64,000 bases of DNA from Nanobdellota archaeon (GTDB taxonomy: Archaea; Nanobdellota; Nanobdellia; Pacearchaeales; GW2011-AR1), in the NCBI GenBank assembly GCA_030611805.1, contig JAUWPB010000002.1:7690-71689 (forward strand), given 5' to 3'. The position numbers were made by a program, and so were the translations under genes. The notes below the pieces were generated by a model, which did not search any database, had not been told where the DNA came from, and saw nothing but the letters and a program-made list of their open reading frames with translations. Below are positions 3,240 through 56,542 of the stretch, in pieces (position 1 is the stretch's first letter; every line of letters starts with the position of its first letter).

Positions 3240-4331
3240 ATGACTTATAAAAAAGTTATAAGAAAAATTTATTGGAAACATTCTTTTAAATTTTTTATGT
3301 GTGCATTATCATGTTTTCTATCCAAACCAAAAGCGATTTCATTTCCATTAAGAGTTGAGATTGAAAACGGTGCAGGATGTAATTTAAAGTGCAAAATGTG
3401 TGCTCTAAATAATATGAAAAGAAAAAGAGGGTTTCTGAATTTCAAAAACTTCAAAAAAATATATGACCAAGTAAAGCCCCCTTATTGCAATCTTTCAGGA
3501 TATACAGAAAGCTTCCTGAATAAAGATATTTTCAAGATGATAAAATATGCAAAAAGTCAGGGTTCTTTTGTGAAGTTAGATTCAAATGCAACGATTATGA
3601 ACAAACAAATTATAGAAAATATTATTGAGTCGGATTTAGATTCAATTTCAATTTCAATAGATGGCTCCACACAAAAAACATATGGAAAGGTACGAAGAGG
3701 AGGAAAATTAGATATAGTTTTATTAAATCTAAAAAAACTTATTAGACAAAAAAACAAAAAAAAATCCAATCTGATAATAGCAATAGCAATAGTTGTGCAA
3801 AAAGATAATCTTCAAGATTTAATGAATATTATTAAATTGCTTGATGAAATTGGGGTGAATGAAATAAATCCTGTCCCAATTACAGAATATGATATTGAAA
3901 AATATGACAAATTTACATTGAAGAACTGCATTGTAGAATTGGAAAAGTTTTGTAAAGAAAAATTAAAAACAAAAACAAAGGTAAATGTTGGTGCCTTAAA
4001 TAGATATTTAAAGGATTATGAAAAGAATAATTTACGGTATAAAAAAGAAGCATGCTACGCTCCGTGGTATGATTCATATATTACTTGGGAAGGAGATGTA
4101 GTTCCATGCTGTTATCATTATGACAAACAAGTCTGCTTTGGTAATGTTTTTAAGGAAGATTTTAAAAAAATTTGGAATAATAAAAAATACAAAGATTTTA
4201 GAAAAAAGATTGTTAAAAAAAGGGAATCTATGATTTGCCAAACATGTAGAAATCACGATACTTTTTTAGAAGATAAATTTAAAATATTGCGAAAAATCCC
4301 TTTTATAGGAGTTTTATCAAATAGAAATTAA
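3240..4331 (+). CDS. radical SAM enzyme with SPASM-like C-terminal Cys cluster
   Basis: 'GAGCNLKCKMCAL' CxxxCxxC triad. C-terminal 'CYAPW..GDVVPCCYHYD..CFGN..CQTCRN'. Confidence 0.8.
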   Translation: MTYKKVIRKIYWKHSFKFFMCALSCFLSKPKAISFPLRVEIENGAGCNLKCKMCALNNMKRKRGFLNFKNFKKIYDQVKPPYCNLSGYTESFLNKDIFKMIKYAKSQGSFVKLDSNATIMNKQIIENIIESDLDSISISIDGSTQKTYGKVRRGGKLDIVLLNLKKLIRQKNKKKSNLIIAIAIVVQKDNLQDLMNIIKLLDEIGVNEINPVPITEYDIEKYDKFTLKNCIVELEKFCKEKLKTKTKVNVGALNRYLKDYEKNNLRYKKEACYAPWYDSYITWEGDVVPCCYHYDKQVCFGNVFKEDFKKIWNNKKYKDFRKKIVKKRESMICQTCRNHDTFLEDKFKILRKIPFIGVLSNRN

Positions 4332-4332
4332 A

Positions 4333-4968
4333 ATGCAAAAATATTTTGGAAAAGAAAGAATATGTAGAGAATATATTGACAAAAATATAAAAGGAAAAAC
4401 ACTTAATATAGGGGCGGGAGAAGTTTTATGGATAGAAAATGAACTCTTTTTAAATAATCCTAAGTTTATCTCCTCTGATATTGAAGAAAAAAATTTGAGG
4501 AGTAAAAATTTTGCATTAAACAAAATTGAAATAGATGCTGTGAAAATACCATTTAAAGATGGCGAGATATCTCAAATAATTATTTTAGATGTTTTAGAAC
4601 ACATAAAACATGATCTAAAAGTTGTTGAAGAAATGAACAGAATATTGAAGAAAGGATGTGCAATAGTAATTTGTGTACCGAGTGAAAATTTCTGCAATAT
4701 TTTTAACCCAATAAAATATTTGCAACATAAACGGCATTATTCTATTGAAAATATAACTTCTCTTTTAACAAAAAATGGATTTAAAATAGAAAAAATCTTT
4801 TGTGGAGGGGGGTTTTTTGAATTACTTGATTTATACATTCATCTAATTATAAAACATACAACTGGAAAATTAGCTTGGTTCAATTTTTTAAAAAAGTTGA
4901 AAGATTGGGAATATAGAAAACATAATGAAAATGGAAATGAGATTATTATAAGGGCTATTAAAAAATAA
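4333..4968 (+). CDS. class I SAM-dependent methyltransferase (type 11-like)
   Basis: 'TLNIGAGE' glycine-rich SAM loop and 'IIILDVLEHI' motif. Confidence 0.7.
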   Translation: MQKYFGKERICREYIDKNIKGKTLNIGAGEVLWIENELFLNNPKFISSDIEEKNLRSKNFALNKIEIDAVKIPFKDGEISQIIILDVLEHIKHDLKVVEEMNRILKKGCAIVICVPSENFCNIFNPIKYLQHKRHYSIENITSLLTKNGFKIEKIFCGGGFFELLDLYIHLIIKHTTGKLAWFNFLKKLKDWEYRKHNENGNEIIIRAIKK

Positions 4969-41604: not shown

Positions 41605-41692
41605 TGCGCGGACTGGGATTCGAACCCAGATCATTTGGTTTCTTCAAAAATTAATTTGGAAGCCAAAGATTCTGCCATTGAACTATCCACGC
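41605..41692 (-). tRNA. tRNA-Gly (anticodon UCC) with 17-nt canonical intron after position 37
   Basis: Hand-folded cloverleaf: acceptor GCGTGGA/TCCGCGC, T-arm CTGGG-TTCGAAT-CCCAG, anticodon stem TTTGG/CCAAA. Intron AATTAATTTTTGAAGAA; its GAAG pairs with CTTC of the anticodon loop (BHB-like). No encoded CCA. Confidence 0.85.
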
Positions 41693-42130: not shown

Positions 42131-42206
42131 TGCGGAAGAAAGGATTCGAGGCCTCGAAGAGGTCATCCCCTTGTGGGAAACCCGTAGGGTGAGAATCAAA
42201 TTTATA
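42131..42206 (-). repeat. tRNA-Leu 3' trailer element A (GC-rich core + copy of tRNA 3' end)
   Basis: Minus strand reads TATAAATT-TGATTCTCACCCTACGGGTTTCCCACAAGGGGATGACCTCTTCGAGGCC-TCGAATCCTTTCTTCCGCA. The last 19 nt repeat the 3' end of the adjacent tRNA. The core is nearly identical to 53218-53267. Confidence 0.85.
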
Positions 42207-42290
42207 TGCGGAAGAAAGGATTCGAACCCTCGCAGGCACTAAGCCACTGGAGCCTTAATCCAGCCCGTTTGACCACTCCGGCACTTCCGC
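42207..42290 (-). tRNA. tRNA-Leu, type II; anticodon reads AAG
   Basis: GCGGAAG-TG-CCG..CGG-G-CTGGA-TTAAGGC-TCCAG-long variable arm-GAGGG-TTCGAAT-CCTTT-CTTCCGC-A. It is in perfect register with the tRNA-Leu(CAA) at 53125, and G37 fits the CUN-Leu family. Confidence 0.8.
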
Positions 42291-53124: not shown

Positions 53125-53208
53125 GCGGATGTGCCGGAGTGGTCAAACGGGACAGACTCAAAATCTGTTAGCTTAGTGCTTACGTGGGTTCGAATCCTTC
53201 CATCCGCA
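53125..53208 (+). tRNA. tRNA-Leu (anticodon CAA), type II
   Basis: GCGGATG-TG-CCG..CGG-G-ACAGA-CTCAAAA-TCTGT-variable arm-GTGGG-TTCGAAT-CCTTC-CATCCGC-A. One T:T mismatch in the T stem. Confidence 0.85.
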
Positions 53209-53286
53209 TCTGTATTTTTGATTCTCACCCTACGGGTTTCCCACAAGGGGATGACCTCTACGAGGCCGCGAATCCTTCCATCCGCA
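53209..53286 (+). repeat. tRNA-Leu 3' trailer element B (GC-rich core + copy of tRNA 3' end)
   Basis: TCTGTATTTT-TGATTCTCACCCTACGGGTTTCCCACAAGGGGATGACCTCTACGAGGCC-GCGAATCCTTCCATCCGCA. The last 18 nt repeat this tRNA's own 3' end. Confidence 0.85.
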
Positions 53287-53311: not shown

Positions 53312-53388
53312 CCCATATCTTTTCAAATTTATACCTGCGAGTGAATCGCGTTAGCGGGAAGATAATACTTCTCGTTTAACAATAAAAA

Positions 53389-55068: not shown

Positions 55069-55704
55069 TCATTTTCCCCTCTTCAACCCCTCTAACTTAT
55101 TCTGGACATGATTAAATAAAGTTGAAGAAAGAAGTGGCTGGTGATTGCCTTGGTGTGTCTGGCCGTCAAATTTAATTTTTCCAAGATAGGTTTGATTTGA
55201 AAGAACTTTTTTTAGCCCGTTTACAGAAAACCCATATTTTTTTGCTAACTTTGTTAAACTAATTTTTTGATTTAAAAAATCCTGAAAAATTTCCTGAACA
55301 ATGTATGAATTTTCAGACGGAATTATTTTTTTATTTTCTAATTTATAACCAAACGCCGCCCTTGTGACAATGTTTCCTTTATTAAACTTTAAAACCATTC
55401 CTTTTTTTGTTCTCTTGGAAATGGATTTTTGAGATTTTCTGAAAGTCTCCAAAAGATCCCCATCAATTTTTTCAGAAATATAGACCTCAAATTCTTTCTC
55501 ATCATCCGGAGCATAATAATGGCAGATAGAACATAAAGTTACTAAATTATTAATACTATCTTCTCCTCCTTTAACCTTCATTTTTATGTGATGTACTTCC
55601 AAGTCATCTAATAGTGCATAAAACCCACATTTTTGGCACTTAAATTTATCTCTGCTAAATACTTCTGATTTTATTTTAAAAGAGACTGTTAATCTTTTTG
55701 ACAT
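55069..55704 (-). CDS. HNH endonuclease domain fused to a serine-recombinase-type 'Recombinase' DNA-binding domain (no resolvase catalytic domain)
   Basis: N-terminus 'CQKCG..LEVHHI..GGEDSINNLVTLCSICH'. C-terminus 'AFGYKLENKK..YIVQEIFQDFLN.KISLTKLAKKY..VLSNQTYLGKI..HQPLLSSTLFNHVQ' resembles the domain that follows the resolvase core in large serine recombinases. Confidence 0.55.
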   Translation of the reverse strand: MSKRLTVSFKIKSEVFSRDKFKCQKCGFYALLDDLEVHHIKMKVKGGEDSINNLVTLCSICHYYAPDDEKEFEVYISEKIDGDLLETFRKSQKSISKRTKKGMVLKFNKGNIVTRAAFGYKLENKKIIPSENSYIVQEIFQDFLNQKISLTKLAKKYGFSVNGLKKVLSNQTYLGKIKFDGQTHQGNHQPLLSSTLFNHVQNKLEGLKRGK

Positions 55705-55705
55705 T

Positions 55706-56542
55706 TTATATTCCCATCATATGATCTAATGGATTTTTTATTTTTTTTAATTCTTCGGTTGAAACGTGTGTGTATATTTGAGTTGTTGAAAGATCTGCAT
55801 GCCCCAACAATTCTTGTATTTTTCTTATGTCCACATTATTTTCTAAAAGATGGGTGGCAAAACTATGCCTAAGAGTATGAGGAGAAACTTTTTTATTGAT
55901 TTTAGCCTTTTTTGCAGCATTTCTTACGATTTTTTGTATATTCCTATCAGATAATTTTCCTTTTGGACCAGTAAATAAATACTCCTCCTCATTTTCTTGT
56001 TGTTTTCTCGCCTGTTTTTTTAAATTTTTTAATAAAAATTGAGGAATATTAAAGATTCTATCTTTTTTTCCTTTTGCTTGTCGTAAATACCCAATCATTT
56101 CCTCAAAATCTAAATCAGAAATTTTAAGATTAACCAACTCTGATACCCTAAAACCTGATGCATAAATTAACCATGTCATTAATTTGCTCTTTTTTGTGGG
56201 AACATGCTCAAGAAGTTTAATTACTTCATTTTTGGTTAAAACTGCTGGAAGTTTTTTCTCTTTTTTTGGGCGTTTTATTCCCATTGTTACATCTCTCTTT
56301 AAAATGGTAGAAAAGGAAAATCTTAATGCAGATAAAAAAACAATAATTGTTGCAGCCGCATTTTCTGTTAGTTTTTCTGCCATATAGAATTTAATGTCAT
56401 CTGATGTGATATTATCTGGCTCTTTTTCCAGGAAATTAAATATTTTTTTATTAACATCTAAATAGTTGCGAATAGTATATTTAGAATTTTTAGAAATCTT
56501 TAATTCAATCTCTAACTTCTTCAAAAATTCCTCTTTTTTCAT
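55706..56542 (-). CDS. xerA: tyrosine recombinase, XerA/XerC/D-like
   Basis: 'SPHTLRHSFATHLLENNVDIRKIQELLGHADLSTTQIYTHV' (R..H..R/H..Y catalytic set) plus a SAM-like N-domain. Confidence 0.8.
   Translation of the reverse strand: MKKEEFLKKLEIELKISKNSKYTIRNYLDVNKKIFNFLEKEPDNITSDDIKFYMAEKLTENAAATIIVFLSALRFSFSTILKRDVTMGIKRPKKEKKLPAVLTKNEVIKLLEHVPTKKSKLMTWLIYASGFRVSELVNLKISDLDFEEMIGYLRQAKGKKDRIFNIPQFLLKNLKKQARKQQENEEEYLFTGPKGKLSDRNIQKIVRNAAKKAKINKKVSPHTLRHSFATHLLENNVDIRKIQELLGHADLSTTQIYTHVSTEELKKIKNPLDHMMGI

Follow-up and report, generated by a model that had tools for sequence, protein, structure and literature searches.

The 64-kb window considered here (the whole stretch of 64,000 nucleotides that was analysed), which comes from an AT-rich DPANN archaeon whose RNA polymerase subunit D (RpoD) has numerous close homologues, one of which bears the name Candidatus Pacearchaeota, contains two tRNA-Leu genes, viz. 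tRNA-Leu(CAA) and tRNA-Leu(AAG). Behind each of them lies a trailer consisting of a short spacer, a conserved module of ~50 nucleotides (nt), referred to below as module X, and a second copy of the tRNA's 3' end. The tRNA's own 3' end is designated as DR1 and the downstream copy as DR2, and the coordinates of all of these features are given in Table 1. The two trailers are inverted relative to each other and ~11 kb apart, and the inverted units, each comprising a tRNA-Leu and X, flank the 5S rRNA and the S13-S4-S11-RpoD cluster. In each trailer only the spacer and the ~50-nt module, ~60 nt in total, lie between the two repeats. Over 43 nt (TTTGATTC...CCTCT) X is identical at the two loci, one nucleotide fewer than was stated in a first-pass annotation of this region, which had correctly recognised the shared core behind both tRNA genes. 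The sole difference within the core, TTC versus TAC, is located, as that annotation also noted, in the 3-nt loop of the 4-bp hairpin CCTC/GAGG. A 42-nt pattern derived from X matched the window at these two places only and gave no match in any of 100 shuffles, and nhmmer searches over all of the fetched DNA added no other copy of X to the two in the window. The acceptor stems of the two tRNAs differ from each other (GCGGAAG/CTTCCGC versus GCGGATG/CATCCGC), and the claim that each DR2 is specific for its own locus has been confirmed at both of them. DR2 is not a T arm, as the GTT at positions 53-55 is replaced by CCG or CCT, and neither ARAGORN nor Rfam calls a tRNA at this place. At the CAA locus, the sequence GATTC inside X is complementary to GAATC of DR2.

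Occurrence of module X in archaea and bacteria

Orthologous sites in related archaea were fetched via the adjacent RpoD gene, the order of the site being RpoD-tRNA-Leu-L18e. X is present at RpoD identities of 97% (L001), 85% (L003) and 83% (L004/L005). The site is empty in L007 (76%), where the L18e promoter AAAAAGTTTTATAAAC is found one base past the tRNA end, and in L037 (79%), where this promoter follows a few bases past the tRNA end. X is also absent from L035/L036 (79%), where unrelated genes come next, and from L006 (78%), where tRNA-Leu(CAA) is followed by tRNA-Arg and tRNA-Gly. X is an insertion, and it forms no part of tRNA-Leu proper; because close relatives carry a normal tRNA-Leu at X-free sites, it is clear that this tRNA functions without the module. 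The locus thus exhibits an insertion polymorphism, with orthologous empty sites in relatives, of the kind that characterises integrated elements.

Other loci harbouring X were identified by scanning sequence collections with the exact 20-mer TCTCACCCTACGGGTTTCCC, which yielded 7 real loci and 2 chance matches, the latter (L010 and L011) lying in GC-rich coding DNA. A 23-mer across the variable loop (ACGGGTTTCCCACAAGGGGATGA), which was a poorly chosen pattern, had no match in the genome, metagenome and viral collections. In archaea, X is found behind tRNA-Leu(TAG) in a marine-sediment archaeon (L009), behind both tRNA-Leu(CAA) (L014) and a tRNA-Leu(TAG) carrying a 62-nt anticodon-loop intron (L015) in one metagenome-assembled genome (MAG), and, in truncated form, behind tRNA-Trp on a Woesearchaeota contig (L016/L012). 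Among the Clostridia, it is located behind tRNA-Ser(CGA) in a Mogibacterium MAG (L017) and behind a mere 3' fragment of tRNA-Ser(CGA) in an Anaerovoracaceae genome (L013). The 23-nt block is identical in every full copy from both the DPANN archaea and the Clostridia, and the hairpin that precedes the junction is formed by five different Watson-Crick stems, viz. CCTC/GAGG, CTCTTT/AAAGAG, CTCAAT/ATTGAG, GGCGC/GCGCC and GGCAC/GTGCC. Compensatory changes are confined to this hairpin (hairpin 3), the other candidate pairs lying in invariant sequence, and they are equally compatible with RNA and with single-stranded DNA, and with either strand. Copies from one genome have the same hairpin 3, and those of different lineages have different ones, a pattern that fits either intragenomic homogenisation or recent spread. 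The identity of 23 nt across two domains, together with a fully diverged hairpin, would argue for strong sequence-specific constraint and not for recent transfer. When the window is compared with L003/L004, the ~49 aligned nt of X are free of substitutions and differ by a single 3-nt loop indel; the four-fold degenerate sites of RpoD in the same comparisons are 76% and 73% identical, and the spacers are unrelated.

The starting point of the duplication is also similar in the two domains. The identity of DR2 to the tRNA begins at C56 in both of them, or at T55 in two archaeal copies (W1 and L009), in which the junction is CCT, and the 3-5 nt just before DR2 differ from the tRNA in all instances (GTT being replaced by CCG or CCT, and GGGTT by CGTCG). 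With these changes, none of the DR2 copies can serve as a T arm. In L017, the repeat extends from C56 through CCA and an intrinsic terminator to ~15 nt beyond (53-68 nt), and the unique part of X is 47 nt. Because this repeat continues past the terminator, the bacterial duplication took place at the DNA level and was not derived from a mature tRNA. In L015, the tRNA 3' end is present in three tandem copies, a 165-nt insert ending in a 13-nt copy being followed by X and an 18-nt copy, and the flank TWAAAGATATT is repeated after two successive tRNA-end copies. Since this flank was duplicated along with the tRNA end, the spacer belongs to the repeat unit, and the spacers in relatives resemble duplicated native tRNA flank.

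These tRNA genes accumulate short insertion scars. In L013, the order is a full X, a cargo of two genes and a truncated X; the cargo (3519-4655, minus strand) encodes a Cro/C1-type helix-turn-helix protein of 220 amino acids (aa) and a 132-aa protein without a Pfam match, and it resembles a small gene pair of the toxin-antitoxin or defence type. In L038 (1965-2068; also in L039), the 5' side of tRNA-Leu(CAA) is affected, the first 17 nt of the gene (TGCGGAGTTGCCGGAG) being duplicated around ~85 nt of unrelated, hairpin-rich sequence. No X module was detected in the phage, plasmid and E. coli sets, in which blastn with the bacterial module returned nothing meaningful, or in IMG/VR with a degenerate X pattern, and a search of IMG/VR with the tRNA-Leu 3' end retrieved bacterial tRNA-Leu-like 3' ends and chance matches only, with no DPANN virus. 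The 17-mer CACCCTACGGGTTTCCC matches one family of phage replication-protein genes in IMG/VR (L018-L033), where it encodes NHPTGFPQ, and 17-23 nt of X (CACCCTACGGGTTTCCCACAGGG) occur in a replication-initiator-like gene (e.g. L019, 8794-8816) beside iteron-like repeats, where they form a 7-bp hairpin. This resemblance is probably a coincidence, one independent match being about the chance expectation; the 6-nt extension of the match is not accounted for by it. Literature searches gave no description of module X.

Table 1. Positions of the trailer components and of other features. Positions refer to the window unless another locus is named.
Feature	Position	Strand	Basis or remarks
tRNA-Leu(CAA), intact, no encoded CCA	53125-53208	+	ARAGORN; Rfam, 56.5 bits
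DR1 of CAA locus, final 18 nt of tRNA-Leu(CAA)	53191-53208	+	Sequence
AT-rich spacer TCTGTATTTTT	53209-53219	+	Alignment; differs between the two loci and between species
Module X, CAA locus	53220-53268	+	nhmmer with X-only profile, match exactly here, E = 4e-14
Invariant 23-nt block ATTCTCACCCTACGGGTTTCCC within X	53221-53242	+	Identical across 10 archaeal and bacterial instances
Small hairpin TTCCC-ACAA-GGGGA within X	53238-53251	+	Sequence
Variable hairpin 3, CCTC-TAC-GAGG, within X	53255-53265	+	Stem differs among instances
Junction CCG, end of X	53266-53268	+	Sequence
DR2 of CAA locus, CGAATCCTTCCATCCGCA	53269-53286	+	Alignment; exact 18-nt copy of tRNA C56-A73 (53191-53208)
tRNA-Leu(AAG)	42207-42290	-	Rfam, 52.8 bits
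DR1 of AAG locus, final 18 nt of tRNA-Leu(AAG)	42207-42224	-	Sequence
Entire second trailer, behind tRNA-Leu(AAG)	42131-42206	-	Alignment; profile match
Spacer TATAAAT, AAG locus	42200-42206	-	Alignment
Module X, AAG locus	42149-42197	-	nhmmer
Hairpin 3, AAG locus	42152-42162	-	Alignment
DR2 of AAG locus, CGAATCCTTTCTTCCGCA	42131-42148	-	Alignment; exact 18-nt copy of the end of its own tRNA
tRNA-Leu(TAG) region, locus L015	7040-7353	-	
HNH endonuclease and Recombinase-domain fusion, 211 aa, without Resolvase catalytic domain	55069-55704	-	
Tyrosine recombinase, 278 aa, directly after the HNH-Recombinase gene	55706-56542	-	
Conserved leader between L18e promoter and L18e-L13-S9	53333-53374		
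ABC-type ATPase, 734 aa	43588-45792	+	
tRNA-Gly(TCC), 88 nt	41605-41692	-	

Agreement of the copies with their own tRNAs

In 7 of the 8 archaeal instances, which represent three acceptor types (CTTCCGC, CATCCGC and CTCCCGC), DR2 follows its own tRNA. Six of these seven copies are exact and that of L009 has one mismatch in 18 nt (C to T). In the bacteria, DR2 of L017 matches its own tRNA-Ser(CGA), and the two repeats of L013, which lacks the body of the tRNA, are the same in sequence. The locus-specific matching noted in the first-pass annotation is borne out in most of the relatives, but it does not extend to L004/L005, where a tRNA-Leu(CAA) with the acceptor sequence CATCCGC is followed by X and then by the AAG-type copy CTTCCGC, leaving two mismatched positions. 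After this copy come a homologue of a 90-aa gene and tRNA-Arg, which in the window flank the AAG locus. The arrangement, which is present in two independent assemblies, is exactly that expected if a crossover had taken place inside X between the two inverted copies, which would invert the segment from ~42.2 to ~53.2 kb. In view of this inversion, a mismatched copy is tolerated, and the copy acts as linked DNA and not as a pairing partner. In L003, the variable arm, the T arm and the acceptor of tRNA-Leu(CAA) are those of the AAG type, and this recombinant tRNA provides further evidence of exchange between the two loci. Further, the flanking partners vary among the relatives (L004, L005, L006 and L014), the observed orders including RpoD-Leu(CAA)-X-90-aa gene and RpoD-Leu(CAA)-tRNA-Arg-tRNA-Gly-SecF, and due to these different partners it is concluded that the segment between the tRNA-Leu loci inverts repeatedly in this lineage. 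The inversion of an 11-kb ribosomal-protein segment via the X copies is of importance for synteny analyses and for the assembly of such genomes.

Origin and significance of the trailers

The trailers can be understood as miniature scars of the attL/attR type left by an element that targets the T loop, an interpretation to which we assign a probability of roughly 0.55. According to this interpretation, a small insertion into a tRNA gene would leave X between two copies of the segment from C56 to the 3' end and slightly beyond, which is the geometry seen after site-specific integration with a crossover in the T loop. Williams reportedly described in 2002 that integrases prefer certain positions within tRNA genes, including the T loop. 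One of the two copies would complete the working tRNA (attL-like), and the other (attR-like) would be the end that was displaced or duplicated and that adjoins the terminus of the element. The best explanation of the locus-specific copy is also its simplest source, which the first-pass annotation did not consider, viz. that the target's own 3' end was duplicated on insertion. The copy would then match its own tRNA as the sequence of that very gene, with no need for pairing, and the match would be preserved by linkage, the 3' part of the tRNA, X and the copy travelling together when the inverted tRNA-Leu loci recombine. The archaeal insertions may have been produced by a tyrosine integrase that acted in trans or was lost afterwards, and X may be a functional att-proximal part of the element, acting as structured DNA or RNA. 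The view that two integrated elements did not decay independently to the same remnant is upheld.

Information regarding an integrase comes from bacterial relatives, which were fetched via the gene upstream of tRNA-Ser(CGA). In one of these (L040) this tRNA gene is bare and the site is empty, and in two others (L041 and L042) the same tRNA-Ser(CGA) is followed by a terminator of its own, by GTATCCA/TGGATACAC repeats and by a gene for a tyrosine integrase, the end of which faces the tRNA; L041 additionally encodes an AAA_25/DnaB_C protein. An archaeal counterpart, with an integrase-encoding element at the tRNA site concerned, did not turn up among the loci and collections scanned. The same TGGATAC repeats are found in L013 directly upstream of the truncated X and also of an X-less variant. 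We read these repeats as putative arm-type integrase-binding sites, and X in L013, which sits between them and the T-loop crossover point, would in this reading represent the att-proximal end of the integrating element. In the window, no integrase or recombinase gene and no cargo is present between the repeats, and the nearest recombinase genes (55069-56542) lie outside of them, past L18e-L13-S9. In L003 and L007, a gene with Resolvase and Recombinase domains lies shortly downstream of the same S9 gene, with one or two small genes in between.

A number of observations weigh against the interpretation of the trailers as integration scars. Among the archaeal loci and the collections scanned there was no full-length X element that carries an integrase, and the ~60 nt between the repeats of the window are too small for an autonomous element or for a DNA circle able to recombine. 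Under a simple integrase model, the element would supply the tRNA-proximal copy, so that two loci with different acceptor stems, both copies being of the local type at each and the spacers not being conserved, need extra steps, viz. selection, gene conversion or linked transfer. Further, the comparison with synonymous sites indicates that X is not a decaying scar and that it is under constraint, and the module persists between perfect direct repeats, which are expected to favour its deletion. In its combination of an invariant 23-nt block with a hairpin that covaries freely, X resembles a structured RNA or single-stranded DNA more closely than an arm site to which a protein binds. With ~9 independent loci, all found with an exact 20-mer, the sample is also small. 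A more far-reaching proposal, which we regard as tentative and whose odds are well below even, is that X constitutes the core of an undescribed family of tiny (~50-115 bp), non-autonomous elements targeting the tRNA T loop in DPANN archaea and Clostridia, in which the core would be no passive scar but a structured nucleic acid with a function, such as a hairpin at the recombination site, a guide-like RNA or a small ribozyme. Such a family would explain the invariance of the 23 nt, the covarying hairpin and the persistence of X between deletion-prone repeats.

The first-pass annotation attributed the locus-specific match either to selection for pairing with the 5' strand of the tRNA or to continuing gene conversion. 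If the former were correct, X and the copy would make up a cis-acting RNA that the host selects for within the precursor of tRNA-Leu, the copy pairing with the 5' acceptor strand and thereby controlling processing or quality control. Although the copy tracks three acceptor types, X is more constrained than synonymous sites, co-transcription seems likely in the archaea, whose spacers contain no strong terminator, and the minimum-energy folds are predicted to pair the 5' strand with the distal copy, this explanation is an improbable one. X is missing from close relatives that have a normal tRNA-Leu (L006, L007 and L035-L037), the mismatched copy is tolerated in L004/L005, and in the bacterial case the tRNA is followed by a terminator before X begins, with the repeat continuing beyond the end of the tRNA. 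Truncated cores without a clean copy are also present (L016 and the second copy of L013), the fold of tRNA plus trailer is no better than that of shuffled sequences (z = -1.1 and -1.8, not significant), and the other tRNAs of the window have nothing similar. The selection for pairing is therefore not supported by these results. Gene conversion, either between the adjacent repeats or between the inverted loci, would keep the match without any selection on the sequence of the copy, and as a sole explanation it is doubtful. The X copies of the window are 100% identical over their 43 nt, in contrast to the tRNAs with their many differences, the two copies of the CBDVES MAG share a species-specific hairpin 3, and both the recombinant tRNA-Leu(CAA) of L003 and the inversion through X in L004/L005 are in accord with it. 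However, repeats of 18 nt located ~60 nt apart are short for homologous conversion, the mismatches of L004/L005 and the single one of L009 have persisted, and the origin of X and of the duplication is left unexplained. Gene conversion should not be interpreted as exclusive of the integration-scar interpretation, which it complements as a possible mechanism of maintenance.

An explanation of a different kind, which we consider unlikely, is that X is the scaffold of a small RNA (guide-type or ribozyme) of a mobile element, whose tRNA-identical tail directs an effector to the segment from the T loop to the 3' end; the changed bases upstream of the tail would then act as a missing protospacer-adjacent (PAM) or target-adjacent (TAM)-like motif, i.e. 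the short sequence which nucleases of the CRISPR type require beside a target, and self-targeting would thus be prevented. The order of the parts (scaffold, variable hairpin and a target-identical tail of 18 or more nt), the constraint on X, the cross-domain invariance of its 23-nt core with one stem freely covarying, and the start of the identity at the same tRNA position in both domains, with the preceding 3-5 nt always different, are in accord with such an RNA. However, the supposed guide adjoins the very sequence it would target, the repeat in bacteria contains a terminator and flanking sequence for which a guide has no need, and there is no match to an Rfam ribozyme, to omega-RNA (the guide RNA of TnpB/IscB) or to any other Rfam family. 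No effector gene lies beside any copy, the neighbours being ribosomal-protein, RNA polymerase, TFB, surface-protein and housekeeping genes, and examination of these neighbours revealed no effector of the kinds that accompany IS110 bridge RNA, the homing CRISPR RNA of CRISPR-associated transposons or TnpB/IscB omega-RNA. In searches against Rfam 15, only tRNAs and 5S rRNA reached the gathering score, and nothing meaningful was obtained on the element at E <= 10. Some other assignments were rejected by eye, viz. a C/D box small RNA (no D box, and GATGA is absent in bacteria), a hammerhead ribozyme (no CUGA core), a ribozyme like that of hepatitis delta virus (unfit helix order and no P1 partner) and a K-turn (motif not conserved in bacteria); the similarity to a fragment of transfer-messenger RNA is superficial, with no model match, and the reverse-strand reading WETRRVRI corresponds to no gene. 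Casposons insert at tRNA 3' ends, including that of tRNA-Leu in Methanosarcina, and duplicate 14-15 bp, and the locality of the duplicated sequence would suit a miniature casposon-like or other transposon, with the repeat as a true target-site duplication. This is very improbable, as terminal inverted repeats are absent from X, the duplication is of no fixed length (18 nt in archaea versus 53-68 nt in bacteria), and no cas1 or transposase gene is found nearby. The stretch from DR1 to DR2 could also be regarded as a non-canonical archaeal T-loop intron that the splicing endonuclease removes at a bulge-helix-bulge (BHB) motif, since joining the two copies at any pair of equivalent positions would restore the same tRNA, and introns do exist in DPANN archaea (in tRNA-Gly of the window and tRNA-Leu of L015). 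However, a strict hBHBh' scan of 5 precursors gave no conserved motif joining equivalent positions, the first copy already completes the tRNA, and the same element is present in bacteria, which lack such splicing; this explanation is close to refuted.

With regard to the significance of these results, duplicated tRNA ends are a standard mark of integration, and the locus-specific match has an ordinary cause, which is not covariation with the tRNA. What is unusual is the insert, whose 23-nt block is common to ultrasmall archaea and Clostridia of the gut, X having been kept intact while adjacent synonymous sites diverged by ~25%. If X should be a working recombination site or RNA, it would be among the smallest site-specific mobile units known and a rare cross-domain case.

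Comparison with known systems and neighbouring features

Partial repeats of tRNA genes (attL/attR) around integrated elements are a general phenomenon in archaea and bacteria (PMC9897764). Like att-flanked islands, proviruses and integrative and conjugative elements, decayed and cis-mobilisable remnants among them, the X loci consist of an intact tRNA and a downstream direct repeat of its 3' part, and they share with such elements the presence/absence polymorphism, the tandem accumulation at one tRNA and the rearrangements through the repeats. However, the repeats of the X loci are separated by ~60 nt, as against 9-120 kb for the examples given in PMC9897764. The insert of the X loci also differs from such elements in that it lacks an integrase and is a defined module with a cross-domain 23-nt block, constrained and not decaying. 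In the distal repeats of E. coli tyrT (RtT RNA), units downstream of a tRNA gene likewise each end in a copy of the tRNA 3' end. RtT (RF00391) and X have no similarity in sequence or structure, the RtT model scoring 13.4 bits, on the wrong strand, where the gathering score is 45, and the RtT units are 178-nt tandem repeats in one species, whereas X is a cross-domain module. The sib element of phage lambda, which exerts retroregulation across attP, offers a positional analogy. The integrase gene of the bacterial relatives ends facing the att core, and X would lie across attP, being joined to int transcripts only when the element is excised. This likeness is one of position only, and an RNase III site would need no invariant block of 23 nt. 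Lastly, 3'ETS-leuZ of E. coli is a sponge for small RNAs that originates from a tRNA trailer. X similarly lies directly downstream of tRNA-Leu and is probably co-transcribed with it in archaea, but it differs from 3'ETS-leuZ in its insertion polymorphism, its association with different tRNAs in two domains and the duplicated tRNA end.

Some other features of the window were noted in the course of this work. The leader between the L18e promoter and L18e-L13-S9 is also present in L001, L003, L007, L035, L037 and L038. In its first hairpin, CCTGC is paired with GCGGG, GCAGG or GTGGG in the relatives, changes that are compensatory or compatible with G-U pairing, and its second hairpin is formed by GAAG/CTTC, GAGA/TCTC or GAAA/TTTC. 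On the basis of these stems, the leader is a candidate for a sense-strand ribosomal-protein leader RNA, and it has no Rfam match. The gene for an ABC-type ATPase appears to contain, just past Walker A, a large insert bounded by C...HN, which by eye looks like a putative intein with a middle part of the size of a homing endonuclease. The tRNA-Gly(TCC) gene of the window evidently contains an intron, its orthologue in L006 (2996-3068) being 73 nt long and intronless.

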